Shown: positions 18,292 to 55,619 of the stretch, in pieces
Position numbering within the stretch: position 1 is the stretch's first letter
Layout of the letters: every line of letters begins with the position of its first letter
DNA from: a virus
Lineage: Duplodnaviria > Caudoviricetes
Virus record (IMG/VR): IMGVR_UViG_3300025121_000014
Coordinates: 1 to 64,000 of that record
DNA: 64,000 nucleotides
Direction: 5' to 3' (one strand)
The notes under the pieces: generated by a model
What the model was told of the DNA's origin: nothing
What the model saw: only the letters and a program-made list of their open reading frames with translations
The model's database searches: none
Position numbers and translations under genes: made by a program

Positions 18292-18307
18292 TGTTCCACG
18301 TGGAACA
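18292..18307. promoter_or_regulatory. parS-type palindrome
   Basis: Perfect intergenic TGTTCCACGTGGAACA; identical core at 55600-55615. Confidence 0.85.
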
Positions 18308-18313
18308 TTATAT

Positions 18314-18556
18314 TTATATTTTTGTAATTAATCTATTTAGTTTATATCTTCGTAATTGTTTAGTATCTAAAAAATATTTTTTCCATCCACCCCTTACAGC
18401 ATGAATTTTTTTATTTTCATCTATTAAACAATAACCATCTAAATCAACATCAACTATTCTATAATATTTTCCTTTTATAAAATCTATTTTTTCAGAATCA
18501 GAATCATAAGGTTCTTTCATATATAATGTATATTTACAATATAAATATTTTAACAT
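18314..18556 (-). CDS. RxxK-tagged small protein (paralog of 18550-18786)
   Basis: FIKGKYY...WKKYFLDTKQLRRYKLNRL. Confidence 0.6.
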   Translation of the reverse strand: MLKYLYCKYTLYMKEPYDSDSEKIDFIKGKYYRIVDVDLDGYCLIDENKKIHAVRGGWKKYFLDTKQLRRYKLNRLITKI

Positions 18557-18786
18557 TTCATTAATTTTTTAATTTTTAATCTTCTTAATTGTATAGTATC
18601 TAAAAAATATTGCTTCCAAGAATATGGTCCATTAGATAATTTTTCTTTATTATTTAATTCATTTGTGACTATAACACTATTTTTTGAATTATTCATATTA
18701 TAATCTTGTTTATAATATTTACCTTTTATGAAACGTATTTCATTTTTAAATCCTAAATTTTTAGTACAATACAAATAATTATTCAT
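18550..18786 (-). CDS. RxxK-tagged small protein
   Basis: FIKGKYY...WKQYFLDTIQLRRLKIKKL. Confidence 0.6.
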   Translation of the reverse strand: MNNYLYCTKNLGFKNEIRFIKGKYYKQDYNMNNSKNSVIVTNELNNKEKLSNGPYSWKQYFLDTIQLRRLKIKKLMKC

Positions 18787-19420
18787 TTTTAATTAATTTT
18801 AATATTTTATCTCGTCTATCGTGTCTTTCCCATATTATTCTTTTATCTAATATATCAACACTAATTATATTTTCATGGTCATCTATATCTTTTAAAATTA
18901 TATTTTTTAAATATGGAAATTTAACACTTTTCCACCAATTATTTAGTTGTTCTTTTTTACAATCTGGTTTAACATAAATTTTACCTGAATCATTATATCC
19001 ACTAATTATACTTGGCATTCCTTTAAAATATATCTTTTTATACTTTAATTTAGAAAAATTTGTTAATTTTAATTTATCCATTAATTCGTCTAATTCATAT
19101 ATAATACTTCGTGCTTTATTAAAAGCATAATCTAAATCTTTTGCATAACATTCATAAATGATAGTTTTATTTAAATTAATTGTAATATTACTAAATCCTT
19201 TTACAAATGAATTTTTAATAATATTACCTTGTTTAATATCTATATCCCAGCATCTTTTATTAATATTTTTTTCGGTATAAGGAACATATTTTTCTTCTTT
19301 ACTAAAAAGATTATTATCCATTTTTATCCATAATGTACCATTATCATGTTCTTTATCTGGAATATCTACAACAGTATATATTGCACCTCTAATCAAGATA
19401 TCATTTACAATATTTTTCAT
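18779..19420 (-). CDS. RxxK-tagged hypothetical protein
   Basis: Ends DRRDKILKL. Confidence 0.6.
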   Translation of the reverse strand: MKNIVNDILIRGAIYTVVDIPDKEHDNGTLWIKMDNNLFSKEEKYVPYTEKNINKRCWDIDIKQGNIIKNSFVKGFSNITINLNKTIIYECYAKDLDYAFNKARSIIYELDELMDKLKLTNFSKLKYKKIYFKGMPSIISGYNDSGKIYVKPDCKKEQLNNWWKSVKFPYLKNIILKDIDDHENIISVDILDKRIIWERHDRRDKILKLIKNE

Positions 19421-19523
19421 TTATTATATTATTCATTATTTTTTTAATCTTTTCCCTTCTGATATAATCATTATAACGAATAGATTTTCCTGTTTTCTTA
19501 CTAGTTATCCAATTTTCGTCCAT
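19401..19523 (-). CDS. 40-aa RxxK-tagged micro-protein (not in ORF track)
   Basis: MDENWITSKKTGKSIRYNDYIRREKIKKIMNNIINEKYCK; overlaps both neighbours in operon fashion. Confidence 0.5.
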   Translation of the reverse strand: MDENWITSKKTGKSIRYNDYIRREKIKKIMNNIINEKYCK

Positions 19524-19740
19524 TTATATAATTCATTATTTTTTTTATCTTTCTTTTTCTTAAATTGTGTATTTCATATTCACTATAACTTATATTATGT
19601 GATATACGTTCAGCAATATATTCTGAATAACTTATACCATGTGATATACGTTCAGCAAGATGTTCTGAATAACTTATATTTATATTATGTGATATATGTT
19701 CAGCAAGATATTCTGAACAACTTGTATTTATATTAATCAT
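19501..19740 (-). CDS. RxxK-tagged protein made of SYSEY[LI]AE repeats (scaffold-like)
   Basis: Four ISYSE(Y/H)(L/I)AE(R/H)ISH-type units, also visible as DNA repeats; ends LRKRKIKKI. Confidence 0.55.
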   Translation of the reverse strand: MININTSCSEYLAEHISHNINISYSEHLAERISHGISYSEYIAERISHNISYSEYEIHNLRKRKIKKIMNYINGRKLDN

Positions 19741-19937
19741 AATGTATTTATTATTTTTTCTAATTTTTGTTTTCTTTTTTTTAATATATCTTTATCAATT
19801 AACCATTCAGTATATCTTATTATATCTTCTTTTGTTACCCCACCAGGTAAATCAACTAATTTAACCATAGTTATAGCTAAATCATAATATCCGTCTTCTA
19901 TTATTGTTTCTATTGATTTACTCATAATCCATTTCAA
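19737..19937 (-). CDS. RxxK-tagged small protein
   Basis: Ends KRKQKLEKI. Confidence 0.55.
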   Translation of the reverse strand: MKWIMSKSIETIIEDGYYDLAITMVKLVDLPGGVTKEDIIRYTEWLIDKDILKKRKQKLEKIINTL

Positions 19938-20316
19938 CTATATTTTGTAATATCCGATTTAATTTTATTCTTCTTAAAAGTAAAAACTCATTTTCTTGTC
20001 CAATATATGCATATCTAATTATATATTCACCTGTATGCATATCCTTTTTAAAAAAGCATTTTTCTTCTAAAGGTATGTATATAACAACCTTATATTGTAA
20101 TTGTTTAATAACATTTATGAAATGATTTAAATTTTTAAATTTAGTATACTTAACACTTACATTTTGATTTATTACTCTAGGTTCACCGTTTATTTTTTTA
20201 ACATAATAATTTACAAATACTGGAATGAAAACATATTTTATTTTTGATATATCTACATCTAATCCTTCAAATAACATATTATTTATTTTTTCTAATTCTT
20301 TGGTTATTGTTGACAC
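19918..20316 (-). CDS. RxxK-tagged protein (weak capsid C-terminus-like YIPL...IRYA)
   Basis: Ends LRRIKLNRI. Confidence 0.5.
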   Translation of the reverse strand: MSTITKELEKINNMLFEGLDVDISKIKYVFIPVFVNYYVKKINGEPRVINQNVSVKYTKFKNLNHFINVIKQLQYKVVIYIPLEEKCFFKKDMHTGEYIIRYAYIGQENEFLLLRRIKLNRILQNIVEMDYE

Positions 20317-20696
20317 TTCATTAATCTTTCAATTTTATATTTTCTAATATATTCCATAGTATGTATTTGTATTATGGAATAATCTACATTGAATTCTATT
20401 AGAATAATATTATCATCATCATAGATATAATCTTTAATGAATATACCATGTAAAATAAGTGATTTAGTATCATCAAAAATTTTTATTTTACTACATTTAT
20501 GTCTATGTTCATCCTGCATATATTTTATTAAATTAAATAAATTATAATCATCTTTTCTATTTGGTAGTAATTTACATTCTAAAATATAATCCAATTCAAC
20601 AATATCGTGATTGATATCTTCTGAATATTTAAATTTTGAATTAAAAAAATCAAATATTTTATCTTCTATTTTTATTAAAAATCCATTAAATATCAT
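20304..20696 (-). CDS. RxxK-tagged protein (weak tube-like beta pattern)
   Basis: IKIFD...LHG.F...IEFNVDY; ends IRKYKIERL. Confidence 0.5.
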   Translation of the reverse strand: MIFNGFLIKIEDKIFDFFNSKFKYSEDINHDIVELDYILECKLLPNRKDDYNLFNLIKYMQDEHRHKCSKIKIFDDTKSLILHGIFIKDYIYDDDNIILIEFNVDYSIIQIHTMEYIRKYKIERLMKCQQ

Positions 20697-20895
20697 TTAT
20701 TAATCTCTTTAATTTTTTATATCTAGCCCACATATTTACTAATACCATATTTACCATCATATAATTTTTACTTGTATATGGTTTATATGTTATATAAACC
20801 AAATTTTCAGTAAATGGTGGTTTAGTCATATATGTATAATCAGTTATTCCTTTTTCTGTTTCTAGATAAATATCTAATAATTGTTTATTGAACAT
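20686..20895 (-). CDS. RxxK-tagged small protein
   Basis: Ends ARYKKLKRL. Confidence 0.55.
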   Translation of the reverse strand: MFNKQLLDIYLETEKGITDYTYMTKPPFTENLVYITYKPYTSKNYMMVNMVLVNMWARYKKLKRLINDI

Positions 20896-21118
20896 TTAAT
20901 TTCTTTATTTTTTTACTTCTTAACCATTTAATATAACCAGATTTATCTAATCCAAAACCTTTTGTATCTCTATTATTTAATTTTACATAATCATCTAATA
21001 TTCTAATTATTATCGATTTATCTATTACTTTTATTGTTTCGATCATTTTATCGGTATATTGTGTGTTACTACACCAATAATTTAAATATTCAATTATAAG
21101 TTTATTATCGTATTCCAT
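20885..21118 (-). CDS. RxxK-tagged small protein
   Basis: Ends LRSKKIKKL. Confidence 0.55.
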   Translation of the reverse strand: MEYDNKLIIEYLNYWCSNTQYTDKMIETIKVIDKSIIIRILDDYVKLNNRDTKGFGLDKSGYIKWLRSKKIKKLNVQ

Positions 21119-21336
21119 TTAATATTTTGTTTAATTTTTTACTTCTTAACCATAAATCAAAATCTTCTTTTTTTACAAATTTATCGGCAATTTTATTTTT
21201 TTTTATAATAATTGTTAGAAAAATTAACATATATGAAATTCCATTTATCTAATTTTATTAAATTCGGTCTTATTTTAGAAATATCATTTATTTGCACATT
21301 TAAATATTTTGATATAATATTTTTATTTAATTCCAT
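21105..21336 (-). pseudogene. RxxK-tagged gene frameshifted at an A9 tract (21196-21204)
   Basis: MELNKNIISKYLN...NNYYKKK* in one frame; ...KIADKFVKKEDFDLWLRSKKLNKILNGIR* in the adjacent frame. Span is 77 codons + 1 nt; paralog of 21323-21556. Confidence 0.65.
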
Positions 21337-21556
21337 TTAATATTTTTTCTAATTTTTTACTTCTTTCCCAAATATGATAATCATTATATCTTATTATTTC
21401 ATTAAATGTTTTAATTTTTATACCATATTCATTAGTAAAATAAACTAAAAAATAAATCAATTTAAATTTAAATATTAATATTCTATCAATATCATCAACA
21501 TTAATATTTAAATATTCAGCTACACTTTCTTTACTTGGTTCTATCAGTTTTATCAT
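21323..21556 (-). CDS. RxxK-tagged small protein
   Basis: Ends ERSKKLEKILNGIK. Confidence 0.6.
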   Translation of the reverse strand: MIKLIEPSKESVAEYLNINVDDIDRILIFKFKLIYFLVYFTNEYGIKIKTFNEIIRYNDYHIWERSKKLEKILNGIK

Positions 21557-21633
21557 ATTTTTTAGAAAAAGTTTTCCAATACTTAAGGTAGTAAATATTA
21601 TTCTTTAAAACAAATTTTTAATATATAAAATGT

Positions 21634-23301
21634 ATGAAAACTTTTAAAGAATTTATAAATGAAAATATTAAAGATTTACTTCAAGGTAGATCAGAAGATG
21701 ATATAGAAAAAAGATTAGAAGGATTAGATGATATAGAAAAAATTAAAATGGTACTTCAATATGATTTACCAGAAAAATATTTACCCCAAAAATATTACGA
21801 TATAGTAAACGAATACATTACAAGTATTAAAAATAGTGTTAAAGAATTAAAAAATATATTAAATAAACCTGTAATTAACGTGGAAAGTTATATTGAAATA
21901 TTTAATACAATAATATTAGCATATACACATTTTTCTAATGTTGAAGATCAATATGATGATTTAGAAGTAGATGAAATTATTCATGAAATTTCTGAATTAG
22001 ACGAAGATAGAATAAAAATTATAGTTTGGTATAATTATACAGATGATTATGAAACGTTTTATACAACATATGATAAACTTAATTTTTTTGATTTAGATAT
22101 GCTCGATAAAAAATTAAAAAAAGCGATTAAAACTTTTAATTCTATTAATGAAAATATTAAAGATTTACTTCAACCAAAATCTGATGATGAAATAATTAAA
22201 GCATTAGAAGGTTTATCTGATTCAGATAAGATAAAACAAATAATTATAAATCAATTAGATTTTAATTTATTACCTCGAAATAAAGATGGAATATGTTTAT
22301 ATGATGATTGGTTAATAATATCTAAATCGAATATAACAGAATTACCAGATAATTTATTAGTAAAAGGTTGGGTATTATGTGATCATAATAAATTATCTAA
22401 ATTACCAAAAGGTTTAACTGTTTTAGGATCACTTTATTGTCAACATAATTTATTAACAGAAATACCAAATGACATTTATGTTAAAGGAAAGTTATTATGT
22501 TACGATAATGCAAAAGTATTAGAATTGCCCGATGGAGCTGAAGTTGGAGAATTCCAAAACATTGAAGTTATAGAATCAATGTATGAAAGTGTAAAAGATT
22601 TGCTTCAACCAAAATCTTATGATGAAATTAAAAAGAATTTAAATTATTTAAATGCATTTGACAAAACAAATATGATTATAAAATATCAATTAGATAGTAA
22701 ATTAATGCCGTCAAAAGATGATATGATTAAATCATTAGATGTTGTAAACACATTAGATAAAATAAGATATATTTATAGATTTGATTTACCAAAAAAATAT
22801 TTACCTTCGGATAAAGATATAAAAGAAGCATTAAAAAATGTTTCTGTTCCTAGTATAATATCATGGGTAAGAACATTTAAATTATCTGAAAAATTATTAC
22901 CAATTTTAAATAAAATAAAAGAACATATTAAAAAATTAGATAATAATGATCAAATAATGTTCATATTTGAAAATGGACTACCCTATGATTTATTACCTAG
23001 AACTAAAGATGGTATATGTAAATTTTATAAATATTATAATACTGATTTAAATATTCAAAATATTGGTTTAACTAAATTACCAGATAATTTAACAGTATAT
23101 AATAATTTAGATTGTAGTAATAATAATTTAAAAGAATTACCAAAAGGCTTAAAGGTTTATAAACATTTATTTTGTGATAGTAATTTATTAACTGAATTAC
23201 CTGATGACTTATATGTGATGGGTGATGTATATTGTGGTAATAATAAAGCAAAACTAAAATTACCAAAAGGCGCTGTTGTTATAGGAGAAATTATTAATTA
23301 A
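21634..23301 (+). CDS. CTS-bearing modular polyprotein with three DLL-KS modules and LRR-like solenoids
   Basis: MKTFKEFINE; ENIKDLLQGRS, ENIKDLLQPKS, ESVKDLLQPKS; two LPDNL.V.G.L.C..N.L repeat blocks. Confidence 0.7.
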   Translation: MKTFKEFINENIKDLLQGRSEDDIEKRLEGLDDIEKIKMVLQYDLPEKYLPQKYYDIVNEYITSIKNSVKELKNILNKPVINVESYIEIFNTIILAYTHFSNVEDQYDDLEVDEIIHEISELDEDRIKIIVWYNYTDDYETFYTTYDKLNFFDLDMLDKKLKKAIKTFNSINENIKDLLQPKSDDEIIKALEGLSDSDKIKQIIINQLDFNLLPRNKDGICLYDDWLIISKSNITELPDNLLVKGWVLCDHNKLSKLPKGLTVLGSLYCQHNLLTEIPNDIYVKGKLLCYDNAKVLELPDGAEVGEFQNIEVIESMYESVKDLLQPKSYDEIKKNLNYLNAFDKTNMIIKYQLDSKLMPSKDDMIKSLDVVNTLDKIRYIYRFDLPKKYLPSDKDIKEALKNVSVPSIISWVRTFKLSEKLLPILNKIKEHIKKLDNNDQIMFIFENGLPYDLLPRTKDGICKFYKYYNTDLNIQNIGLTKLPDNLTVYNNLDCSNNNLKELPKGLKVYKHLFCDSNLLTELPDDLYVMGDVYCGNNKAKLKLPKGAVVIGEIIN

Positions 23302-23657: not shown

Positions 23658-24978
23658 TGTGTTTCCAGAACTTAAACAAGTTCCTTCTCTTTAAACGCTT
23701 CATTGCTTATGCCATCAAATGATGGTCTTATTTTGGCTCTGCGTTTGTAATCGGAAGTCCCTCCCGATATATTTTTTCTATATCCTTCATTAAAGATATT
23801 GATTGCTGCATTTACATCTCTATCATGAACTTCACTACATTCAGGGCAAGTCCAAGTTCTATCTTTCAAATGTAATGGTTGATTGATATAACCACATTTA
23901 TGACAGGTTTTACTTGAAGGAAAAAATCTATCTATATGTATTATTTCCTTTTCATTCCACTCTGCTTTGTATGTAAGAATATCAATGAATTTACCCCAAC
24001 TAACATCACCAATGGCTTTTGCTAATTTATGGTTTTTCATCATTCCTTTTACATTCAAATCTTCAAGATAGATTTTATCGTATTGATTTACAAGGTTTAA
24101 TGTAGTTTTATGAATTAAATCCATTCTTGAATTAGTTATTTTTTCATGAATTTTTGCTACTTTAATCCTTTGTTTTTCACACCTTGATGAACCTTTTGTT
24201 TTTCTTGATAGATATTTTTGATTTTTGGTTAAAAGTTTTTCATAGTGTTTAAGAAATCTATGGTTCTTGATTTTCGTTCCATTAGATAACACTAAAAAAT
24301 CTTTTATTCCTAAATCTATTCCTACTGATTGGTTTGTTTTAACTAAAGGTGTATATTCCTTTTCAGTTAGAATTGAAACAAAGTATTTACTAGTAGGGGT
24401 TTTACTTAATGTTGCTTTTTTAATTATTCCTTTAATTTCTCGTTCCATTATCATTTTAATTCCTTCTTGAAATTTTGGTATGAAAAGTAATACATCTTCA
24501 TTTCTAACAAATTGAGGACAAGTAAATGAGTTTTTTGATTTTTTTGACTTAAAACGAGGAAATTGAGTTCTTTTATTAAAGAAATTTTGGTATGCCTGAT
24601 CTAAACATTTCAATGAATATTGAAGTGATTGACTATTAACTTCTTTTAACCAATCTGTTTCATTTTCTTGCTTTAATTGTGTTAAACATTTTGATTGTTT
24701 GTTATAAGTTATTGATTTTTTACTATTTAAATATTCTTCTTTTCTTTGATTAAGAAAATAATTATATGACCACCTAACTGAACCAAAATGTTTATTTAAA
24801 AGAACTTCTTGTTCCTTTGTTGGTTTCAGTCTAAATTTATACGTATATTTAATTATTTTCACTTAAACAAAATTGTTTTTTTTGTATAAGTATATATTAA
24901 ACAAAAAAAGTCACATTTTTCCATTTTTGAAAGTCAAATTCATCCATTAAACTGAAGATTTAACGGTTTTCTTTGACA
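23658..24978 (-). mobile_element. IS200/IS605-family (IS1341-like) tnpB-only element, right end apparently truncated
   Basis: Left-end hairpin GTCAAAGAAAACCGTTAAATCTTCAGTTTAATGGATGAATTTGAC near-identical to that at 46475; no tnpA. Confidence 0.75.
23672..24862 (-). CDS. tnpB: TnpB RNA-guided nuclease
   Basis: YKFRLKPT HTH, GIDLG, LEDL, CHKCG...CPEC, DRDVNAAIN. Confidence 0.92.
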   Translation of the reverse strand: MKIIKYTYKFRLKPTKEQEVLLNKHFGSVRWSYNYFLNQRKEEYLNSKKSITYNKQSKCLTQLKQENETDWLKEVNSQSLQYSLKCLDQAYQNFFNKRTQFPRFKSKKSKNSFTCPQFVRNEDVLLFIPKFQEGIKMIMEREIKGIIKKATLSKTPTSKYFVSILTEKEYTPLVKTNQSVGIDLGIKDFLVLSNGTKIKNHRFLKHYEKLLTKNQKYLSRKTKGSSRCEKQRIKVAKIHEKITNSRMDLIHKTTLNLVNQYDKIYLEDLNVKGMMKNHKLAKAIGDVSWGKFIDILTYKAEWNEKEIIHIDRFFPSSKTCHKCGYINQPLHLKDRTWTCPECSEVHDRDVNAAINIFNEGYRKNISGGTSDYKRRAKIRPSFDGISNEAFKEKELV

Positions 24979-25001: not shown

Positions 25002-28000
25002 TTACATTTTTAGACTTGATATTCCATATTCATCCTTTTCAACTGTAATTAAGTAATCGTAATTAATAGTTTTATCGTGTTCAATTATGATAAGTTTATC
25101 TACTTGGTTTTTAATACTATCTAATAGGTCTATAAATTTTTCAACACTCGAATCAACGAGTTTTGACATTATCTCGTCTAACATTAACATAGAACATTTT
25201 GATTTTGAATTAACAGATCTTAACGCTATTTTTAAACTAACAGCAGCAAAAGTTCTTTCCATACCACTTGATTGTTCTATTCCTTGACATACATCCAACC
25301 GATTATCATTCGATAATTTTAAATTTAATTCTTCATCAAAATAAATTGTATAATCTACATCAGTTAAAATATTATTTAATTCTTGATTAATTATTGATAT
25401 TGACTTCTTTAATAAATAAGTTGGAATTCCATCTCTATGAACACACTTTAAATATACAGTTAAAATTTCATCTCGTTTTTGTTGTTCTTTAAATTTAATT
25501 AAAATTTTATCTAATTCTTCTAACTTACTATTAATCAACATCATATTAGCATCTATATTAGATTTTTCATTAGATTTTTCATTAATTTGAATATCTAATT
25601 CATCCAGTAATATATTTAAATCATTAATTTTAATTAAAAGATCTTTATTGTGTTGAATTTTATGTAATTCATTATTATAAGTTTCAATTTCTTTTTCAAG
25701 ATTAAGTATTTCTGATTTACATTTTATAATATCTAAATTTATTTTATCTTCTAAAGCAATTGCTTCTTTTTTCTTTTGGTATTTAACTTCTTCTTCTTCT
25801 AAAATAATAATATCTATTTTTATTGTTTCCAAACTACTTTTCTTAATAGAAATATGATTAATTAATTTTTCTTTTTCTTTTTCTATATTATTTATTTTAT
25901 CAATAGTATATTCTTTTTGTTCATATGATGATTTTAATTTTAATCTTAAATTATTTGATAAATTATCATCCTTAATTAAAGTAATGTTTTTATTAATTTC
26001 TTCATTATTATTTTTATAATTAGAAATTTTATTTAAAACATCATAGTAAGATTCTTTTAAATCATTATCAAAATTATAATCTTTTTCAGATATTTTTATT
26101 AATATACTTTCTTTATTTTTTATTGATTCATTCAAATTATTATATTCTATTTTTAATAATTTAACTTCTTCCATTATGTTTAACATCCTGGATTTATTTT
26201 TTTCTATTTTTTCACCAATAATAATAATATCTTTTTCTTCTAATGGTCTATGGCAAGTTATGCAAATTTTACTATGTTCTAAATCATTATTCTCTACTTT
26301 TAACAATTTGCCATCATTCATTAAATTATCAATTTTTGTTTGAACATTATTTTGCTGTAATGTTATTTTATGAACATTTTCTTTGATATCAGATTTTAAT
26401 TTAATTATTTTATCATTAAAATCTGTTTTTAATTTAGATATTTCATTATCATTTGTTTCTATTTCTTTTTCAAGTGTTCTAATATGTTGATCGATGATAT
26501 TTTTAATATCCATATTGATAGTTTTTATATCAGATGATAGTTTACCTATCTCAATATCAAAGTCCTTGGATTGTATGTTTAAATCGTTTATTTCGTCTTT
26601 TAAATTATTTAATTTATCTCTTTTTTCAATTAATTCTACATTATTATAATTTTTAATTTCTTCTTTTAATTGTTCAATTTTAGTTAATTGTTCTTCTCTT
26701 TTTTCAATAGTTAATTTAACTACTTCTATTTTATCTTTAACATTAATTAAATCGAAATTTTCTAATGATTTATCTATTTGATGCATCTGACTTAAATATC
26801 CATCTTTTTCTTTAATAAGAGGTTTCTTTTTTTCTTCAACAACTTTTATTTCCATAATTTTATTAACAAACTTAGATTCTAATAACATCATATTTTCGTT
26901 ATGAATTTTTTTATTTTCTTCATATTGTGTTAAATCGAAATCTATTCTGCTACTATTTAATTCTTTTTTATATATTTTGAATTCTTCTAATTTTTTTTCA
27001 AAAATATCATAACCAGCATATCTAATAACAGAATCAATAAATACTGATCTATCCATAGAAATTAAATCATTTAAATTATCTGCTGTAGTTAATACTAATC
27101 TTATAAAATCAGTAAAATCTCCAATAGTATTTTCTATAATTTTTTGAGTATCTTTCTTTTGTTCATCAGTTAAATTAGCATCATCTATTATATCACGACC
27201 TATGTAATAATTAACAGAAGTAGAACAAGAAGTTATTTCTGTTTTATTTCTATTCCATTTTCTTTCTGTTCTTCTTAAAATAGTATATTCTTGTTCATTA
27301 ATAGAAATTATTGCACCACCATTACAATAATCTAAATCTCTTTTGTTATTTATATATCGATTGTCTGAATTTTTTTCTCTTTTTAAAGTAGTTAATGTTT
27401 TCCCATAAATAATATAACAAATTGCATCAAGAATAGTTGTTTTTCCTTGCTGATTAATTCCAGTTAATTGATAAATTCCATTATTACTTTCCCAATCTAT
27501 AATAGTTTCATCACCATACGATTTAAAATTTTCAAACCAAAATTTATTTATACTCCAATTAACACCGATAGTGTTTTTAGATTGATCCATTCTATCATTA
27601 ATAATAGTATCAATATCTAATATTTCATTGATAAAATCTTTTTTATACCCATTCAATTTAAGAAATTCAATAAATATTTCTTTTTGAACATCTATATTTG
27701 TTAAATCGATTGATTCATTAATCATTTCAACCCCAGACATATCAGTATAAATAGCTTCTCTTTTGACTTTAATTTTAGGTAAATTATATTTATCTTTAAA
27801 ATATTGTCTTATTTTAATTTCATTTTCATTATTAACATTAGCGCTGATATCTTGCCATTTAACTTTAACTTCTGATTGTTCAGTTAAATGTTTAGATGTT
27901 AAATTAAGATTATTATAATCAGTATTAGTAGGAATTGTGAAATTTATATAATTATGTTCATTATGGATATGATGAAATATAGATTTAAATTCATCTTTGG

Positions 28001-28691
28001 ATTCAATTTGCCACTCTATAAACCCGTGATTTTCAACACTTTCCCCAAAATTTTGCTGAATTAAACTTGAACTATAAGCCATAGATTTATTTTCCCTAAA
28101 ATATTGCAATTTGTGAATATCATTTAAAAAGCAGTAATAGTTTTTGTCAAAAAATGCTACATTTTTATATTTTTTATCCGTAAATTTCATTCCTAAATCT
28201 GTAACAGAATTATTTATTGGGTCGTGAAAAAGTCCGATATAAATTTTATCATTATTTTTTGTATGTGGAATATCAATCCAAGGAATTATATGTTTTTCTA
28301 TATGTGAATAATTTACCCATATTATATCACCATCTTCATAAAAACCAGATTTTTCTAAATATAATATATTAGGATTATTAAGTAATTTGACTATTGGTCT
28401 GATTGAATTGACACGATTTTTGTTCTTGGACATAATGTCGTGATTACCCGGAATCACTATAGTCTTAGCGATATTAGCAAGTTCAGTTAAGAATTCTCCT
28501 GCTAATTCTTCCGCTTCATTAGATATAGCAACAAAATTATCAAACAAATCTCCACCGATTACAATCCGATCGGGCTTCAACTCATTTAATTTGTCATAAA
28601 ATTTTTGAAATTGGATTCTATATTCTTCATGTCTTTGTAAATTGAAAATATGTATATCTCCGCAGTGGGCTATTATAATAGGATTAGACAT
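25002..28691 (-). CDS. Fused SbcD(Mre11/gp47)-SbcC(Rad50/gp46) nuclease-ATPase
   Basis: N-terminal DIH, GGDLFD, GNHD and DIH phosphoesterase motifs; Walker A GINQQGKT, CITC hook, SGME, LMLDE, IIEH. Confidence 0.9.
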   Translation of the reverse strand: MSNPIIIAHCGDIHIFNLQRHEEYRIQFQKFYDKLNELKPDRIVIGGDLFDNFVAISNEAEELAGEFLTELANIAKTIVIPGNHDIMSKNKNRVNSIRPIVKLLNNPNILYLEKSGFYEDGDIIWVNYSHIEKHIIPWIDIPHTKNNDKIYIGLFHDPINNSVTDLGMKFTDKKYKNVAFFDKNYYCFLNDIHKLQYFRENKSMAYSSSLIQQNFGESVENHGFIEWQIESKDEFKSIFHHIHNEHNYINFTIPTNTDYNNLNLTSKHLTEQSEVKVKWQDISANVNNENEIKIRQYFKDKYNLPKIKVKREAIYTDMSGVEMINESIDLTNIDVQKEIFIEFLKLNGYKKDFINEILDIDTIINDRMDQSKNTIGVNWSINKFWFENFKSYGDETIIDWESNNGIYQLTGINQQGKTTILDAICYIIYGKTLTTLKREKNSDNRYINNKRDLDYCNGGAIISINEQEYTILRRTERKWNRNKTEITSCSTSVNYYIGRDIIDDANLTDEQKKDTQKIIENTIGDFTDFIRLVLTTADNLNDLISMDRSVFIDSVIRYAGYDIFEKKLEEFKIYKKELNSSRIDFDLTQYEENKKIHNENMMLLESKFVNKIMEIKVVEEKKKPLIKEKDGYLSQMHQIDKSLENFDLINVKDKIEVVKLTIEKREEQLTKIEQLKEEIKNYNNVELIEKRDKLNNLKDEINDLNIQSKDFDIEIGKLSSDIKTINMDIKNIIDQHIRTLEKEIETNDNEISKLKTDFNDKIIKLKSDIKENVHKITLQQNNVQTKIDNLMNDGKLLKVENNDLEHSKICITCHRPLEEKDIIIIGEKIEKNKSRMLNIMEEVKLLKIEYNNLNESIKNKESILIKISEKDYNFDNDLKESYYDVLNKISNYKNNNEEINKNITLIKDDNLSNNLRLKLKSSYEQKEYTIDKINNIEKEKEKLINHISIKKSSLETIKIDIIILEEEEVKYQKKKEAIALEDKINLDIIKCKSEILNLEKEIETYNNELHKIQHNKDLLIKINDLNILLDELDIQINEKSNEKSNIDANMMLINSKLEELDKILIKFKEQQKRDEILTVYLKCVHRDGIPTYLLKKSISIINQELNNILTDVDYTIYFDEELNLKLSNDNRLDVCQGIEQSSGMERTFAAVSLKIALRSVNSKSKCSMLMLDEIMSKLVDSSVEKFIDLLDSIKNQVDKLIIIEHDKTINYDYLITVEKDEYGISSLKM

Positions 28692-33695: not shown

Positions 33696-34325
33696 GTTGT
33701 ATCTACCTATCATTCCAAGGTTATATCCAACATTGGTAGTATAAATAGGGATGATTGTTATGTTGTATCTACCTATCATTCCAAGGTTATATCCAACGAA
33801 ACAAGTTTTTTCTGAATTACAGACACTGTTGTATCTACCTATCATTCCAAGGTTATATCCAACTAATTATAAAAATGAAAAGATAATGTAAGGGTTGTAT
33901 CTACCTATCATTCCAAGGTTATATCCAACACTGAATATTTATGGTATTCCGTCTGAAGCGTTGTATCTACCTATCATTCCAAGGTTATATCCAACTCGAT
34001 GGTAAATGCCTTAAACGGTATTAGAGTTGTATCTACCTATCATTCCAAGGTTATATCCAACCATAATCTAATAATGGAATATTACTCCCTCGTTGTATCT
34101 ACCTATCATTCCAAGGTTATATCCAACATATTGGGAAGGTGAACTATTAGCAGGTTCGTTGTATCTACCTATCATTCCAAGGTTATATCCAACGTATTAT
34201 GTGATACTTTTTGTTCTTTATCAGTTGTATCTACCTATCATTCCAAGGTTATATCCAACAAATGATATTTTTAATATACCTATGAACTTGTTGTATCTAC
34301 CTATCATTCCAAGGTTATATCCAAC
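33696..34325. CRISPR. CRISPR array: 10 identical 36-nt repeats, 9 spacers of 30 nt
   Basis: Repeat GTTGTATCTACCTATCATTCCAAGGTTATATCCAAC at 33696, 33762, 33828, 33894, 33960, 34026, 34092, 34158, 34224 and 34290. Confidence 0.99.
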
Positions 34326-34476: not shown

Positions 34477-35739
34477 TCAAAGAACTTTTTCTTTATTTTT
34501 TAATTTATAATATTGTGTATTTTCATATTTATCAACATATAATTTTGATTTGGCAATATTATATGCTGCATTATAATCAGAATCTATATTTTCATTGTGT
34601 ATTTTACACTTATCATTTTGACATATAAATGTATCCCCATTTCTTTCCCCTATTTCCCCACATATAGAACATATTTGACTAGTATGATAAGGATCGACAA
34701 ATTTCAAGTTTATTCCATAAGAATCTACTTTATATTTTAACTTGTCTATAAAATTAGAAATTGGCCAATATCTAGAAAAAAATGAATTCTTATCAATATT
34801 TCTATTTAATAATTCCATATTAATCTGTTCTACTTTATACTTTATACAAAAATCAATAACCTGTTTACTTAATTTATGTAAAGCAGTATTAGTAAAATTA
34901 ATTTCTTTTTTTCTGATAGTGTCTAAATATTTTAATTTTCTATTTCTACCGTGTCCACCTTTTGCCATAACCATAGATTTCTGGTATTCTCTTCTTTTCT
35001 TATTAATATCCATCTTTACACGGATTAAATCATCAGAATGAATTGATTTTTGTACATGTATATTATCATTTAATCTTATTGATACAAATCGTCTAACACC
35101 TAAATCGATGCCACATACTCTACCTTTTACTTTTTCGTAATCTTCAGATTCTGTTTCATATGTAAATATTATATAATAATGTTTGTCTCTTTTATTGTAT
35201 GTTACGTTAAAAACTCTATTAATATTTAGTGATTTATCATTTTTATCCATTAATCTTTCTAATAGTTTTTTGTTACCACTTTTATCTTTACCAAATAATA
35301 GTTTAAAATCTAATCCATTTTTTATTCTTAATATGATATCATCATTTACATTATGAAAATTTGGATTAATCCCACCACTATTAAATTGGTATATAATAGG
35401 TGCTCCATATTTATATAATCTAGGTGTTCGTTTACCTTTAAATAATCCGTTTTTTATGTCATTAGAAAAATCTTTCTTAACCCTATGACATATATTAGAT
35501 AATATAGCTGTTGGGAATGTTGGATGCAAATCTCTTACAGAGTGATATACTTTTGTTGTTTTTGCAGATTTTACTGGAATAATACTTTCTGACAATTTTT
35601 GTTTTATAAATACCCATTCGTGTGAATATGCATCATTATATATTTTATTTGTTTGATACATTAAATTATTTATATAATCAAATGTATTTTTATTTAATGG
35701 CACTATTCTTATTTTTACTGCGGATATGTATTTATTCAT
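34477..35739 (-). CDS. cas12f: Compact type V effector, Cas12f-like (TnpB-derived), RuvC intact
   Basis: GIDLG (RuvC-I), GHGRNRKL helix, NMEL (RuvC-II), WP...DKLKYK...G...VDP.HTSQ.CS.CG, DSDYNAA (RuvC-III); 420 aa; adjacent array. Confidence 0.82.
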   Translation of the reverse strand: MNKYISAVKIRIVPLNKNTFDYINNLMYQTNKIYNDAYSHEWVFIKQKLSESIIPVKSAKTTKVYHSVRDLHPTFPTAILSNICHRVKKDFSNDIKNGLFKGKRTPRLYKYGAPIIYQFNSGGINPNFHNVNDDIILRIKNGLDFKLLFGKDKSGNKKLLERLMDKNDKSLNINRVFNVTYNKRDKHYYIIFTYETESEDYEKVKGRVCGIDLGVRRFVSIRLNDNIHVQKSIHSDDLIRVKMDINKKRREYQKSMVMAKGGHGRNRKLKYLDTIRKKEINFTNTALHKLSKQVIDFCIKYKVEQINMELLNRNIDKNSFFSRYWPISNFIDKLKYKVDSYGINLKFVDPYHTSQICSICGEIGERNGDTFICQNDKCKIHNENIDSDYNAAYNIAKSKLYVDKYENTQYYKLKNKEKVL

Positions 35740-46562: not shown

Positions 46563-47763
46563 TTTAAAGGAAAAATAAAATATCTTTAAAAATGTTAAAA
46601 TCATATAAATACAGAATATACCCAAATCAAGCCCAAAAAGAACTTCTTTCAAAGATTTTTGGTCAAGTAAGATTTGTATATAATCTTGGTTTAGAAACTA
46701 AAATAACAGCATATACAGGAAACAAAAAAAATATTGATGTGTTTGATTTAAATAAGCAAATTAAAGAATTAAAAGATAATGAATGTGAATGGTTAAAAGA
46801 AAGCCCATCACAAGCACTTCAAATGAGTATGTCTAATCTAGATAATGCTTATACAAATTTCTTTAGAGGAAAAGGTTTTCCAAAATTTAAGAATAAATAT
46901 TCAAAACAATCATTTCAACTACCACAAGGTGTTTGGTTATCAGATAATAATAAACAAATTTTTATACCGAAATTAAAATTCACCGATATAGATTTACATC
47001 GTGAATTTAAAGGCGATATTAAAACTGTAACAGTAAGTAAATCAATAACTAATAAATATTATATATCAATTTTAACAGATAATTTACAACCTAAACCAGA
47101 AAAAAAACCAATTAAGTTAAATACAACAATTGGAATTGATTTAGGGATTAAAGATTTTGCTATCACTTCAGATGGAAAGAAATTCAAGAACCACGATTTC
47201 TTTAAATCTGCTTTAAGAGAACTAAGGGTTGAACAGCGATCTCTTAGTAGGAAAAAGAAAGGATCAAACCATTACAATCAACAAAAAATGAAAGTCGCTT
47301 TAATACACGAACACATTAAAAATCAAAGAGAAGATTATTTACATAAAATCAGTAAATATTTAGTTGATAATTATGACACTATATGTATTGAAAATCTTGG
47401 TGTATCTAATATGATTAAAAATCATAAATTATCTAAAGCAATATCAGATATGGGATGGAATAAATTTAAATCTATGCTTGATTATAAATGTGAATGGTAT
47501 GGTAAAAATTTAAGTGTGATTGGTAGATTTGATCCGTCAAGTAAATCATGTAGTTCTTGTGGGACAATAAATAAAGAATTAACATTAAAAGATAGAGAAT
47601 GGGTTTGTAAAGAGTGTGGTGTTAAACACGATAGGGATATTAATGCTGCAATAAATATAAGAAATTTTGGGTTGAGGAACCAACCTAGCGTCACACAAAG
47701 TGAATGGTTGCATTGTGCTTGTGGCGTAGAAACACACAAATCTTCAGTTTGTGTGTAGTTCAT
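46474..47763 (+). mobile_element. IS200/IS605-family tnpB-only element with both ends
   Basis: Left end GTCAAAGAAAACCACCAAATCTTCAGTTTGGTGGATGAATTTGAC; right end GAAACACACAAATCTTCAGTTTGTGTGTAGTTCAT. Confidence 0.8.
46592..47758 (+). CDS. tnpB: TnpB RNA-guided nuclease
   Basis: YKYRIYPN, GIDLG, IENL, CSSCG...CKECG, DRDINAAIN. Confidence 0.92.
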   Translation: MLKSYKYRIYPNQAQKELLSKIFGQVRFVYNLGLETKITAYTGNKKNIDVFDLNKQIKELKDNECEWLKESPSQALQMSMSNLDNAYTNFFRGKGFPKFKNKYSKQSFQLPQGVWLSDNNKQIFIPKLKFTDIDLHREFKGDIKTVTVSKSITNKYYISILTDNLQPKPEKKPIKLNTTIGIDLGIKDFAITSDGKKFKNHDFFKSALRELRVEQRSLSRKKKGSNHYNQQKMKVALIHEHIKNQREDYLHKISKYLVDNYDTICIENLGVSNMIKNHKLSKAISDMGWNKFKSMLDYKCEWYGKNLSVIGRFDPSSKSCSSCGTINKELTLKDREWVCKECGVKHDRDINAAINIRNFGLRNQPSVTQSEWLHCACGVETHKSSVCV

Positions 47764-48311: not shown

Positions 48312-49016
48312 ATGAAAACATTTAAACAATTTATTAATGAAAATGTAAAAGATTTACTAACAGGAAAATCTGATGATGTTATTAGTAAAGAATTAGATAA
48401 ATTAAAAATACAAGATAAATTAAGATATATTCAAAAATATGATTTATCTGATAAATTTATGCCATCTGATAAGGAAATTAAAAATTATTTAAATAAATTC
48501 AGCACATATCAAATTATTGATAAAATACATTATTTAAATTTACCTAAAAAATTTATGCCAACTGATGAAGAAATTAAAAAATTAAAACCTTCGAAATTAT
48601 TAGAATTTATATCAAGAGGATGTATTTCTAAAAAATTTGAACCTACAAAAAAAGATTTAAATACATTTATGGAAAATATACCTAATGATATTAAAAATAT
48701 ATTGCAAATATATATTGATGCTGACGATAATTATGAATCAACAGGATTTTTTTTAAATTTTATTGATCAATTTACTACTTGTAAAAATTATTATAAATAT
48801 ATAATAGATATTGTTAATACTCACATAGAAGATTATTCTGACCATGAACCTAATCCATATTCACATATTAAATCTGATCAAGAAAAACTAAATTTTATGG
48901 ATTCTGATTTACTAATAGAATTTGTTGGTAATGGTATTTTTTATATTGATAGTAACACATATAATCATTTTATAGAAGATTTGAAAAAAACTAGTTGGAA
49001 TGATATAGTGGAATAG
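48312..49016 (+). CDS. CTS/DLL-KS module protein
   Basis: MKTFKQFINENVKDLLTGKSDD. Confidence 0.65.
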   Translation: MKTFKQFINENVKDLLTGKSDDVISKELDKLKIQDKLRYIQKYDLSDKFMPSDKEIKNYLNKFSTYQIIDKIHYLNLPKKFMPTDEEIKKLKPSKLLEFISRGCISKKFEPTKKDLNTFMENIPNDIKNILQIYIDADDNYESTGFFLNFIDQFTTCKNYYKYIIDIVNTHIEDYSDHEPNPYSHIKSDQEKLNFMDSDLLIEFVGNGIFYIDSNTYNHFIEDLKKTSWNDIVE

Positions 49017-49053: not shown

Positions 49054-49091
49054 AAAAATCTATTTTTAATATATATTAAAAATAGATTTTT
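49054..49091. repeat. Perfect 38-bp palindrome centred on the late-promoter motif
   Basis: AAAAATCTATTTTTAATATATATTAAAAATAGATTTTT. Confidence 0.85.
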
Positions 49092-49095: not shown

Positions 49096-49539
49096 ATGAT
49101 TTATAAATTTAGTGAATTTGAAAGATTAAATGAGGAAACAAAACCAAGTAAAATATATAAAAATGTTATGTTTGATGATTACGAAATTAGAATTGGTCGT
49201 AATAGTCAGGTCAATGATATATTAACATTTGAATATGCTAATGATAATGATTTATGGTTTCATGTTAGTGGATACCCTGGTTCACATGTTGTAATAAAAG
49301 TTAAGGAAAATCAAGAAACACCAAACAAAGTTATTTTAGAAGCTTCTAGATTAGCTATTTATAATTCTAAGGCAAAAGGAAAAGGATTAGTTAAAGTAGT
49401 CTATACAGAAAGAAAAAACGTTACTAAGACCGATAAACATAATCCAGGGCAAGTTAGTGTTGATTATAGTAAATCAAAATTTATAAAAATAGAAGTTTTA
49501 AAAAAATATAATATAAATGAAACATATAAAAATATTTAA
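49096..49539 (+). CDS. NFACT-R (DUF814) RNA-binding domain protein with CTS
   Basis: IGRNSQVNDILT, DLWFHV...PGSHVV, A...S, V.YT..KNV.K, PGQV. Confidence 0.85.
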   Translation: MIYKFSEFERLNEETKPSKIYKNVMFDDYEIRIGRNSQVNDILTFEYANDNDLWFHVSGYPGSHVVIKVKENQETPNKVILEASRLAIYNSKAKGKGLVKVVYTERKNVTKTDKHNPGQVSVDYSKSKFIKIEVLKKYNINETYKNI

Positions 49540-51140: not shown

Positions 51141-51172
51141 TTAATATATAAATAAAAAATAATTGTGTTTTA

Positions 51173-51565: not shown

Positions 51566-51570
51566 ATATT

Positions 51571-53079
51571 ATGTTACTTAAAAAATATAATGATTTTATG
51601 ATTGACAAATTACTTTTAGAATCATTAAATGAATTTAAATTTATTTTATCAGGTCGTTTAAAAAATATATTAAAAAATATAAATAGTGAAATATCTGATG
51701 CATTACTAGCATTACATAATGATGATGATTATAAAAGTAAAAAAACGTTTATAGATATTAATGAAAGAGATGATGAAACTTTAACATTAATTCAAGCAAA
51801 TAAAGCTACTGAAATATTAAAAATAGATAATCAAGAATATTTAGATAATAATCCTTATTCAATACAGCGATATAAAAAATTAAAATCTGATCATGATGTA
51901 TATAATAAACATAGAATATCCGTAAGAGTAGGTCGTTTAATTAATTATTTATTTCCTAATAGATTTCCTAGTGCTTCACCAACAGATATTACCAAAAAAT
52001 CAAAAGATATTGAAAATTTTGTTAGAATGTATAAATCTATTGTTTTTCAAAACGAAAGATTTAAATTATTAGATTTGGTAAATGGTGATAATATATCATA
52101 CTGGTATGATTGTAATAATTATGATAGTAGTGATTCTGGATCATTAGGTAGTTCTTGTATGGCAAGTGTATATGAAGAATATTTTGAAATATATGTTAAT
52201 AATCCAAATACTATACAATTATTAATATTATATTCTGATAATTCTAAATCATATATATCTGGAAGAGCCTTAGTTTGGACATTATATGAACCAGAAAATG
52301 GTAGAAAATATATGGATAGAATTTATACAAATGATAGTTCAGATGAACAAGTATTTATTGATTATGCTAAAGAAAATGGTTGGTTATTTAGATCATCACA
52401 AGGTTGGAATAATACTGATATTGTTGATTCATTAACAAATCAAACTATTAATACGAATTTAATGGTTCGTACAACTAAAGACGATTATAGTTATTATCCT
52501 TGGATGGATACTATGTGTTATTATAGTCCGGAACTTGGAATTTTATCTAATAAATCAAATAATTTACGACTATATCTGCAATCACAAGATGGTTCAAGTT
52601 CAACAAATAGTGATTATTATGAAAATGAAGATGATACTTATATATTTAGTAAATATGAAGGGGAAGATATACTTCGAAGAACCGCAGTATATTGTTATTA
52701 TGGAGATGATTGGGTTCATACATCAGTAGCCAAAAGAGTATTTAATGCGGGATTAGTAACAAATCCAGATGGGACTAATAGAATTTATTCTATTCCTGTA
52801 CATCCTGATGTTGTTAGATCATATATTCCTGATATTAATTATGATAAACATTTTCCAAAGAAAAAATGTATTTGGTCAATTTATTTAAATGCTTGGATTT
52901 TTAAAGATAGTAAAGTAAAAATATATCTAGATGTAAATAGAGAAAAATTTGGATATGACCACAAAAAACGTAAAGATATAAATTTTGGAAAAGTAGGTAG
53001 AGTTCATTATGTAATTGAATTACTTGAAAAAAATGAAAATGATCAATGGAAATTAAAAAAAGAAAATGAAAAAGTTTAA
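51571..53079 (+). CDS. CTS-bearing conserved phage protein (SCM...GRALVW...MDRIY family)
   Basis: LLESLNE; GSLGSSCM, GRALVW, YMDRIYT, YPWMDT. Confidence 0.6.
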   Translation: MLLKKYNDFMIDKLLLESLNEFKFILSGRLKNILKNINSEISDALLALHNDDDYKSKKTFIDINERDDETLTLIQANKATEILKIDNQEYLDNNPYSIQRYKKLKSDHDVYNKHRISVRVGRLINYLFPNRFPSASPTDITKKSKDIENFVRMYKSIVFQNERFKLLDLVNGDNISYWYDCNNYDSSDSGSLGSSCMASVYEEYFEIYVNNPNTIQLLILYSDNSKSYISGRALVWTLYEPENGRKYMDRIYTNDSSDEQVFIDYAKENGWLFRSSQGWNNTDIVDSLTNQTINTNLMVRTTKDDYSYYPWMDTMCYYSPELGILSNKSNNLRLYLQSQDGSSSTNSDYYENEDDTYIFSKYEGEDILRRTAVYCYYGDDWVHTSVAKRVFNAGLVTNPDGTNRIYSIPVHPDVVRSYIPDINYDKHFPKKKCIWSIYLNAWIFKDSKVKIYLDVNREKFGYDHKKRKDINFGKVGRVHYVIELLEKNENDQWKLKKENEKV

Positions 53080-53098
53080 ATAATTTATAAATGAAAAT
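53066..53098 (+). pseudogene. Decayed copy of the CTS-coding cassette
   Basis: ATGAAAAAGTTTAAATAATTTATAAATGAAAAT vs ATGAAAAAGTTTAAACAATTCATAAATGAAAAT at 53404 (CAA to TAA). Confidence 0.65.
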
Positions 53099-53140
53099 TT
53101 AAAATATAATAAGTATAACTTAAAAATAAATGAAAAATAA

Positions 53141-53395
53141 ATGAAAAGCATAAAAAAATTTAATAATTTCTTAAATGAAGGATTAAGCACAAGTAATAAA
53201 TTAGAAATAAAATATGTTAATATACATGGTGAAGAAATGATATTAAAATATGATGGAGTAGAAAGTACATTTTTTCATAGTGACATAACTGACATACCTA
53301 TTCCCTTACGATCTACTACTTTAGATGATTTTATTTTAAATAATGAAGAACAAAAAGTAATTGATTGTTTTTTATCTTTAGTGGATATAAATTAA
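53141..53395 (+). CDS. CTS-bearing small protein
   Basis: MKSIKKFNNFLNEG. Confidence 0.6.
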   Translation: MKSIKKFNNFLNEGLSTSNKLEIKYVNIHGEEMILKYDGVESTFFHSDITDIPIPLRSTTLDDFILNNEEQKVIDCFLSLVDIN

Positions 53396-53403
53396 AAAAG
53401 AAA

Positions 53404-53934
53404 ATGAAAAAGTTTAAACAATTCATAAATGAAAATATTAAAGATTTACTTAAAGGTAAAACAGAAGAAGAAATAAATAAAAATATAATTAATTTAAGTT
53501 CTTATGAAAAATTAAAATTAGCAAAAAAATATGAATTTAAATTATCAGATGTCGATGAAAAAGATGCTATTAAATCTGCGCTTATATATAATCCTGAAGA
53601 ATTAATTTTAGATTTAAAATATGATTATGATGATTTATCTAAAATAGTTTCTGATGAAGAAATTAAAAAAGGATTAAAAAGTATTACAAAACGTTTATTT
53701 AACATTATGAAAGGTAATAACAGAGAAAATGCATTTGAAGAATTAGAAAAAGTAGTATTTTATCTTTTTAAAAATGGATATCTATATGATAACACAGATA
53801 CACTTGGTAATTTATGGTTTAAACATAAAACATATGATAAATATAAAGGTGGTAGCACTACTTGGAATGGATATAATACATTAAGTGATGCGATAGATTA
53901 TGTTACTAGGATGCAAAAATTAAATAATTCATAA
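53404..53934 (+). CDS. CTS/DLL-KS module protein (true start 53404; ORF track 53365)
   Basis: MKKFKQFINENIKDLLKGKTEEEI. Confidence 0.65.
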   Translation: MKKFKQFINENIKDLLKGKTEEEINKNIINLSSYEKLKLAKKYEFKLSDVDEKDAIKSALIYNPEELILDLKYDYDDLSKIVSDEEIKKGLKSITKRLFNIMKGNNRENAFEELEKVVFYLFKNGYLYDNTDTLGNLWFKHKTYDKYKGGSTTWNGYNTLSDAIDYVTRMQKLNNS

Positions 53935-53981
53935 ACGATAATATTAATAATTCATTTAATCTACATTTTTTAATATATAAT

Positions 53982-54104
53982 AATAAAAAATATTGTAAAG
54001 ATAATAATATAAATCTTTTAAGAATTAAATATGATGAAAATATAAAAGAAAAATTAAATATTGTTTTAAAAACAAAAAAAACAAAAAAGATAAAAAATGA
54101 GTAA
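53982..54104 (+). pseudogene. 3' relic of a DUF559-type homing endonuclease
   Basis: KYCKDNNINLLRIKYDENIKEKL matches the C-termini of 42670-43182 and 58887-59858; no start or core. Confidence 0.65.
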
Positions 54105-55413
54105 AATGATTAAATTAGATAACAAAATAACAGAAGAAGAATTTATACAAAGTTTATCTGATAAAGAACTTATCATCTATGAAGATATCCAGGGATCGAA
54201 AGTTTACGTGAAGTTTGATGGAGATAGATTTATTATAAAACCACGAAGTTTTAAAAATGAAGAATTAAATTTTGTAGATTTAGCAGTACAACGCTATTAT
54301 AATATGATTTTCGCGTTCTTCCATTCACTTCCACGATATATTACAGATATTATAAATAGAAACTGGTGGTTCTGCTTTCAGTATCTTTACGATGAATCTG
54401 GAAGCCATACTAAATATAATAAAATACCTAAAAATAATTTAATATTAACATCAATAGTAAAAGGTAGTAAACATAAATTTAATTATGATGAAATAGTAGA
54501 ATATTCTAATTTATTTGATGTTGAACCATTACCTGTAATTTTTAAAGGTGAACTATTACCAAAACAATTAGAAGTTATTGCATTATTTTTAAAATCAAGT
54601 GTAGAAGATTTAAAATTTGTATTTGGTGATGATAATTTTGCAAAATTTTTCTATAATATTTTAAATGTTAAAATAGAAAATTCTTTTTTAATGGATAATA
54701 ATTTTAATGATAATTTAGAAAAAATTATTATTAGAATTGACGGTGATGATAGATTTTCATTTGAAATATTGAACCCGTTATTTAAGAAAAATTTAAGTGA
54801 TAATGCAACTGAATATGCACAAATATTTAGTTTAATTATTGTTAACTTTTTAGAATTTTTACAATTAAAAAATATTAAAAAATATAAACCAAAAGGATTA
54901 ACAAAAGATGAAATGTATATTAATTTAATATCTATAATTTTTAATGAATATATGGATAATATTAAAGATGATATTAAAGATTGGGAAATATCTATTCCTA
55001 AATTTATTAAAGATGATAAATTTAAATTAAATACAAATTTAATTAGAAATAAAATAACAAAAGAATATGTTCAATCTAGTGAAAAAATAGAATATCTTTT
55101 TAAAATAATTCTTGGAAATTTTAATAGGTATCGTAATGAGAATAAGATTATGGGTGTCTTTACAGAAAAAACTGTTGAATTACTTAACAAAAAAGTTGAA
55201 GAAATTAATAAATATTTAGAAGAACAACTTAAAATATACAGAGATTACCGCTTCCAACAGATTGATTTGCTGAACTTTAGGGATTACTTTGATTTAAAAT
55301 TTGATAAAGATGCTTCGGGAACCATATATCCAGATATTTCGGTCGAATTTGAAGATGAACAAGAAACTGAAACAAGTAAAAAGGGAAAGAAAGGTAAGTG
55401 GGAAAAAAAATGA
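54097..55413 (+). CDS. RNA-ligase(Rnl2)-like fold protein lacking the adenylated Lys
   Basis: YEDIQGS in place of EKxxG; LP.IFKG, EKIIIRI, FEILNP.F. Confidence 0.4.
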   Translation: MSKMIKLDNKITEEEFIQSLSDKELIIYEDIQGSKVYVKFDGDRFIIKPRSFKNEELNFVDLAVQRYYNMIFAFFHSLPRYITDIINRNWWFCFQYLYDESGSHTKYNKIPKNNLILTSIVKGSKHKFNYDEIVEYSNLFDVEPLPVIFKGELLPKQLEVIALFLKSSVEDLKFVFGDDNFAKFFYNILNVKIENSFLMDNNFNDNLEKIIIRIDGDDRFSFEILNPLFKKNLSDNATEYAQIFSLIIVNFLEFLQLKNIKKYKPKGLTKDEMYINLISIIFNEYMDNIKDDIKDWEISIPKFIKDDKFKLNTNLIRNKITKEYVQSSEKIEYLFKIILGNFNRYRNENKIMGVFTEKTVELLNKKVEEINKYLEEQLKIYRDYRFQQIDLLNFRDYFDLKFDKDASGTIYPDISVEFEDEQETETSKKGKKGKWEKK

Positions 55414-55595
55414 TAATTTTAAAAATTATCTTTTAAGTTAATACCCCTTTTAATCAAATCATCTTTTATTAAATTTTCAATATATTTTGATTTAGTACTA
55501 TAATACCCATTTAGATAATATTAATGTATATACGATAGAAAACATTTGTAAATTAACAGATGAAGAAGAATTTATAAGTTATAAAAATTTTATTT

Positions 55596-55619
55596 AAATT
55601 GTTCCACGTGGAACAATTT
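55596..55619. promoter_or_regulatory. parS-type palindrome (24-bp perfect)
   Basis: AAATTGTTCCACGTGGAACAATTT, intergenic. Confidence 0.85.

Follow-up and report, generated by a model that had tools for sequence, protein, structure and literature searches.

Partition sites on phage genomes are known from N15, whose SopB/sopC-like repeats are dispersed, and from P1, which has a parS. Both are temperate plasmid-prophages with their own ParA and ParB, and their sites have private sequences, not that of the host chromosomal parS. Host-type parS have been described in the virulent Bacillus phage phi29, with five such sites along its genome and with Spo0J implicated in the entry of the genome into the prespore (PMC2731898); the sites of phi29 and of its relative Nf were reported by Meijer et al. 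in 2005, as summarised in the same paper. In this work we have analysed the first 64,000 nucleotides (the window) of the viral record IMGVR_UViG_3300025121_000014, a 232,944-bp contig from aquifer metagenomes. The window contained two exact copies of the 16-bp palindrome TGTTCCACGTGGAACA, at positions 18292-18307 (site 1) and 55600-55615 (site 2), with the sequence of a chromosomal parS, the site to which ParB binds.

The reading that we favour, and that we consider about as likely as not, is that both palindromes are functional parS of the chromosomal type, kept in the phage so that a non-phage ParB, that of the host chromosome, would load on its DNA. Loading of host ParB is favoured because two perfect copies of a 16-mer with 50% GC, whose flanks are unrelated, have been kept in a genome under extreme AT pressure, and because this 16-mer is a known ParB site. 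Clamps of host ParB-CTP would be loaded at both sites and would then spread onto the neighbouring phage DNA, and the loaded ParB would couple the phage genome to the ParABS machinery of the host. Through this coupling, non-lytic phage DNA (dormant, in a carrier state or slowly replicating) could be positioned or inherited by daughter cells, by analogy with phi29, for which prespore capture of the DNA depends on Spo0J. Recruitment of SMC through the phage sites is speculation. Host-ParB loading ranks above all the rival explanations considered below, namely a phage-encoded reader, titration of ParB, neutral passengers and a hairpin role.

The two sites and their surroundings

An earlier note on this DNA, made from the letters alone, had described an exact and identical intergenic pair of 50% GC sites in a low-GC jumbo phage genome, with a chance expectation well under 1e-5. 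The pair was re-found by direct scan at the same positions, and the rest of that description held as well. The GC content of the window was 22% (A 40%, T 38%, G 11%, C 11%) as compared to 50% in the 16-mer, the expected count of the 16-mer under a first-order Markov model was 8.5e-7 per window, and both the length of the contig and the phage structural genes in the window corresponded to a jumbo phage. None of 100 dinucleotide-preserving shuffles of the window yielded two matches, and no third copy was found across the 64 kb even when up to three mismatches were allowed. Perfect palindromes of at least 12 bp numbered 78; a core with 40% GC or more occurred only in the two holding the 16-mer, the rest being AT-rich. 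Isolated half-sites (GTTCCAC/GTGGAAC) were present four times besides the two full sites, mostly in coding sequence, vs. around 1.4 expected; this excess is slight and is not considered meaningful.

Site 1, to which no strand was assigned, is a perfect 16-bp palindrome inside a 47-bp gap of a long operon of small genes. The minus-strand genes on either side, upstream (80 aa, 18314-18556) and downstream (122 aa, 17898-18266), had no family match, and the ATG of the latter was 25 nt downstream of the site. Site 2, 37.3 kb away and likewise strandless, is extended by AAAT and ATTT to a perfect palindrome of 24 bp (55596-55619). It is placed inside a 289-bp gap where two blocks of plus-strand genes meet, between a 438-aa gene (54097-55413) with neither family match nor IMG/VR relatives and a 465-aa gene (55703-57100), the first of a paralogous set whose members are probably fibre or structural proteins. 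The likeness between the surroundings of the two sites was limited to 16 bp; their flanks are thus non-homologous, which indicated that the sites are neither part of a duplicated segment nor the terminus of a repeat element. Both sites, their flanks unchanged, were seen again in contigs that had been assembled separately for several groundwater samples (L006-L009 and L143-L146), and this recurrence in independent assemblies rules out an assembly artefact. In one scaffold (scaffold_7255, ANAN16-1_SAMN03842451-S001; L144 1-3791) site 1 was kept, but three other minus-strand genes, one of them PMT_2 glycosyltransferase-like, took the place of those found upstream of the 213-aa gene that occupies 18779-19420 in the window; this scaffold is either a strain variant or a chimera.

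The vicinity of site 2 bears on the possibility that the palindromes act as hairpins. An intrinsic terminator-like hairpin followed by a T-run was located on the plus strand directly after site 2 (55621-55649), outside the parS, and a copy of the motif TTTAATATATA (55669-55679, plus strand) preceded gene 55703-57100. This motif, probably a phage promoter motif, had 21 copies in the window and was recurrently found upstream of genes; site 2 was 54 nt upstream of its copy with the terminator in between, and so there was no overlap. A stem-loop at the transcript end or in the 5' untranslated region, a terminator helper, or a recombination or nuclease target could have this appearance, the identity with parS being then coincidental. 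Any palindrome can fold, site 2 forms a 10-bp stem directly before the terminator (the 81-nt stretch with both hairpins folds with z = -5.7), and site 1 displayed a weak terminator score on the plus strand. However, the genes around site 1 are on the minus strand, where no T-run was present, and its hairpin is weak (-8 kcal/mol, z = -2.5). The other terminators of the window use different stems, and the probability of a stem matching parS at 16/16 positions twice by chance is negligible. A role as hairpins is for these reasons highly improbable.

A function as operator of an adjacent promoter received no consistent support, the terminator separating site 2 from the next promoter motif. The octamer TATAAATA beside site 1 was uninformative, with 47 occurrences in the window. 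Among the AT-only perfect palindromes, two centred on TTTAATATATATTAAA were observed: one of 54 bp (7835-7888) between the divergent genes 7520-7837 (minus strand) and 7886-8782 (plus strand), and one of 38 bp (49054-49091) between the plus-strand genes 48312-49016 and 49096-49539. Each consists of the promoter-like motif twice, back to back, and both are candidate bidirectional promoters.

The window also contained many homing endonucleases and three TnpB-type genes, and the sites were considered as ends of IS200/605-TnpB elements. This idea was rejected, since 5-20 kb separate the TnpB genes from the sites, whose flanks show no repetition. Full-length TnpB (IS605 OrfB) genes, both matching phrog_506 (E ~1e-130), were found at 23672-24862 (minus strand) and 46592-47758 (plus strand), and another TnpB copy was present just past the window end (L137 9601-10818). 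In addition, a 36-nt repeat (GTTGTATCTACC...ATATCCAAC) occurred 10 times with a 66-bp period at 33696-34305, adjoining a 420-aa TnpB/Cas12f-like gene (34477-35739, minus strand) with OrfB_IS605 and Cas12f1-like TNB domains. Repeats and gene together form a predicted phage-borne mini CRISPR-like locus, which could aid in finding the host.

Identity of the 16-mer and the probable host

Both sites are perfect palindromes that match the TGTTNCACGTGNAACA inverted repeat at 16/16 positions. The sequence is, letter for letter, that of parS2 and parS3 of Pseudomonas aeruginosa and of the parS of P. putida (PMC4368675, PMC7022226), and the identical parS2 and parS3 are ParB-bound, experimentally studied sites. 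With one genome considered per prokaryotic species, the matches listed placed the exact 16-mer in many phyla, often as 2-5 clustered copies, and the groups with this CC/GG spelling among them included Gammaproteobacteria, Acidobacteriota and Verrucomicrobiota, along with others. In Algibacter two copies bracket gidA (mnmG), a classic origin-proximal gene, and in Flavobacterium soli a single copy is located between ybeY and gidA. Four Bacteroidota genomes with the 16-mer were checked; all of them had one canonical ParB, and in all of them the ParB gene and the parS were on different contigs, the parS not being beside parAB. Paired parS around 1.9 kb apart were present in many Bacteroidota genomes. 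The copies flanking gidA, in genomes with one canonical ParB each, indicated that the CC/GG spelling is an authentic centromere spelling, Bacteroidota included.

The identification of the palindrome as a chromosomal ParB site, already proposed in the earlier note, was thus borne out both by the identity with the Pseudomonas parS and by the gidA-flanking copies in Algibacter and F. soli. Its further statement that the spelling is typical of Bacteroidota has to be corrected. Of 301 evenly sampled Bacteroidota genomes, 23 had the 16-mer, vs. 143 with the classical TGTTTCACGTGAAACA (reversed-sequence controls gave 0 and 1, respectively); it is a minority spelling in this phylum and is equally at home in others.

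The host was approached through the relatives of the phage proteins. Relatives of the protein encoded at 3228-4193 were found only in uncultured megaphages, Prevotella Lak phages, the Chryseobacterium phages MA9V-1 and MA9V-2 and a Flavobacterium phage. As these are Bacteroidota phages and megaphages, the host is likely to belong to the Bacteroidota, and it is probably a member with the CC/GG spelling in its own parS. Other genes of the window encode a head maturation protease, tail sheath, tail tube, a baseplate protein and endonuclease VII. A single 1229-aa protein (25002-28691, minus strand) fuses an SbcD-like metallophosphoesterase with an SbcC/AAA_23 ATPase; its nearest matches, at 41% identity, were in the 735-kb uncultured megaphages LR756501 and LR756503, with weaker ones in Microcystis phage Mel-JY01, another uncultured megaphage, Tenacibaculum jumbo phages and Sphingomonas phage PAU. 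Megablast of both site neighbourhoods against GenBank phages gave no match. The exact flanked site was absent from IMG/VR, where no relatives of the site-flanking genes were found either.

The search for a reader of the sites

Every plausible open reading frame of the window was compared with Pfam and PHROGs, and at this sensitivity none belonged to ParB_N, to the ParA-type ATPases or to helix-turn-helix (HTH) families of the partition type; the absence of parA and parB from the window, as previously noted, therefore stands at that level. The genome was followed downstream by exact-protein look-ups into other assemblies of the same phage, reaching around 97 kb (contigs L137, L297, L300 and L303). 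No ParB family appeared in the precomputed gene annotations of around 33 kb of downstream contigs, and no further parS with up to three mismatches was found between around 59 and 97 kb of the genome. Six distant relatives, namely Chryseobacterium phage MA9V-2 and five uncultured megaphages (462-735 kb), yielded no ParB_N domain, the Bacteroides control being positive. In hosts of the Bacteroidota type ParB is near-universal.

This walk provided some additional observations on the genome. By its coordinates, the ENA contig k141_477750 of the same phage (156,681 bp; L303) must extend around 25 kb before the first base of the window, pointing to circular permutation or terminal redundancy of the genome. 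At around 72-97 kb (L297 and L300) giant genes were encountered (3059, 2036 and >1460 aa, and also 925, 842 and 563 aa) with faint LRR, Laminin_G and DUF285 signals; they probably encode fibre or adhesin proteins.

The sites could also be read by a protein of the phage itself, of the ParB family or another HTH type, encoded in the other ~136 kb (~58%) of the genome; they would then constitute a phage-owned parS/ParB or KorB-like module for control or partition. Phages often have proteins with the ParB-CTPase fold, frequently fused to other domains (PMC12704722), and the search covered only around 97 of 233 kb. On the other hand, phage and plasmid ParBs normally have private spellings and here the parS is the chromosomal one to the letter; besides, no ParB was found in the window or in the six distant relatives. 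Taken together, we regard a phage-encoded reader as unlikely.

Binding of host ParB might serve a different purpose from the inheritance of phage DNA. The sites of dozens to hundreds of replicating genomes would act as a sink that titrates ParB-CTP off the host origin as part of host takeover and, speculatively, disturbs chromosome segregation or ParB-dependent regulation in the host. The sequence evidence for this is the same as for productive loading, and the phage has the appearance of a virulent one (T4-like, no lysogeny genes noted). Yet with two sites per genome the sink would be weak, blocking segregation in the host would bring little gain to a lytic phage within one infection cycle, and there was no precedent in the literature searched. 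Such titration seems to us decidedly unlikely.

Recurrence in other phages and comparison with known systems

Eight related huge or jumbo phage genomes had no GTTNCACGTGNAAC at all, whereas the cultured Chryseobacterium jumbo phages MA9V-1 and MA9V-2 presented one GTTTCACGTGAAAC core each, at a place non-homologous to the window sites. The core of MA9V-2 is a full perfect TGTTTCACGTGAAACA, inside the hypothetical coding sequence MA9V2_167 (OR513085.1 130721-130736; L277 1522-1537). That of MA9V-1, around 89617 of OR050627.1, is known from the core only, and the ParB_N search covered MA9V-2. No parS was found near homologues of gene 55703-57100 (L010-L015, 37-47% identity). A flank of 10 A/T on both sides accompanied the site at no fewer than 119 metagenome loci. 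Neither blastn nor tblastn related any of these, or any of 15 IMG/VR contigs carrying the classical spelling, to this phage. The sites do not characterise a clade.

Several of these results weigh against the loading of host ParB as the function of the sites. To the lack of parS in the eight related genomes and near the homologues of gene 55703-57100 it must be added that the database copies of this phage are all identical; with no variation among copies, purifying selection on the sites is not demonstrable. The Bacteroidota host is a likely one only, and so are its ParB and its parS spelling. Genes for lysogeny or plasmid maintenance have so far not been noted in this genome. The search for a phage ParB covered the window and the annotations of around 33 kb downstream, and the parS scan ~97 of 233 kb. 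Finally, Bacteroidota do not sporulate, so that the pay-off proposed for phi29 is not directly transferable and a carrier or pseudolysogenic state would be needed instead.

The lack of conservation in relatives, and of variation among copies that could show selection, also speaks for another reading, in which the sites would be neutral passengers, short pieces of host DNA or recombination by-products that are parS by chance and have not yet decayed. Nevertheless, both copies are perfect and exactly 16 bp long with no extra host-like flank, strong AT pressure should erase a 16-mer of 50% GC, and two independent captures of the precise parS core would be a very improbable event. We consider neutral passengers very unlikely, and host-ParB loading remains the preferred explanation.

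Perfect parS were also found in an unrelated phage. The complete 116-kb genome IMGVR_UViG_3300025387_000013 (31% GC) contained six full 16-mers of the form TGTTCCACGTG[G/A]AACA at around 68.9, 86.8, 87.6, 87.7, 101.3, and 115.2 kb, three with the CC/GG and three with the CC/GA spelling, and no ParB_N domain was found in it. Because orphan parS are present in this phage and in MA9V-1 and MA9V-2 as well, host-ParB hijacking might be general: in jumbo T4-like phages of non-sporulating Bacteroidota, genomes would be partitioned by host ParABS through orphan parS during a carrier or pseudolysogenic state, as a persistence strategy of phages held to be lytic and not a curiosity of phi29. We put this generalisation, drawn by analogy, forward tentatively and regard it as rather doubtful at present.

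If host ParB does load at the two sites, a phage in which no lysogeny genes have been noted could be carried and inherited by growing cells. This would bear on the persistence of huge phages in slow-growing groundwater communities and on the carrier states of Bacteroidota phages, so far without explanation. In a T4-like jumbo phage of such very low GC, it is the more striking that a site with 50% GC has persisted. As cultured distant relatives, MA9V-1 and MA9V-2 offer a laboratory system for the use of host ParB, a perfect classical parS having been read in MA9V-2. The principle is not new, since host-ParB use was established with phi29 in 2005, according to the summary of that work cited above. 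The site is of a known kind and its setting has a published precedent; the interest lies mainly in the growing pattern of perfect host parS on phages without ParB.

With respect to the chromosomal parS/ParB-CTP complexes of P. aeruginosa and P. putida and the gidA sites of Flavobacteriia, the phage sites are identical over 16 bp and differ in their context. Chromosomal parS are located near the origin, with ParA and ParB encoded on the same replicon, whereas in the phage no ParA or ParB was found in the window, the sites are 37 kb apart and the neighbouring genes are without an assigned function. A literature search for chromosomal parS in jumbo or lytic phages besides phi29 returned nothing relevant. 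The dispersal of the copies along a phage genome had been considered unusual in the earlier note; the five parS along the genome of phi29 (PMC2731898) provide a precedent. Phi29 has a 19-kb genome and is a protein-primed podovirus that infects a spore-former; binding and genetics have been done for its five sites. Our phage, by contrast, is a T4-like jumbo phage of ~233 kb, its Bacteroidota host probably does not sporulate, and the two sites found so far are known from sequence alone. The pay-off in the latter, unlike in phi29, cannot be spore entrapment. Phi29 is classed as lytic and our phage looks virulent, and both have several dispersed parS copies of the host-chromosome type; phi29 has no ParB of its own, and in our phage none was found in the window.

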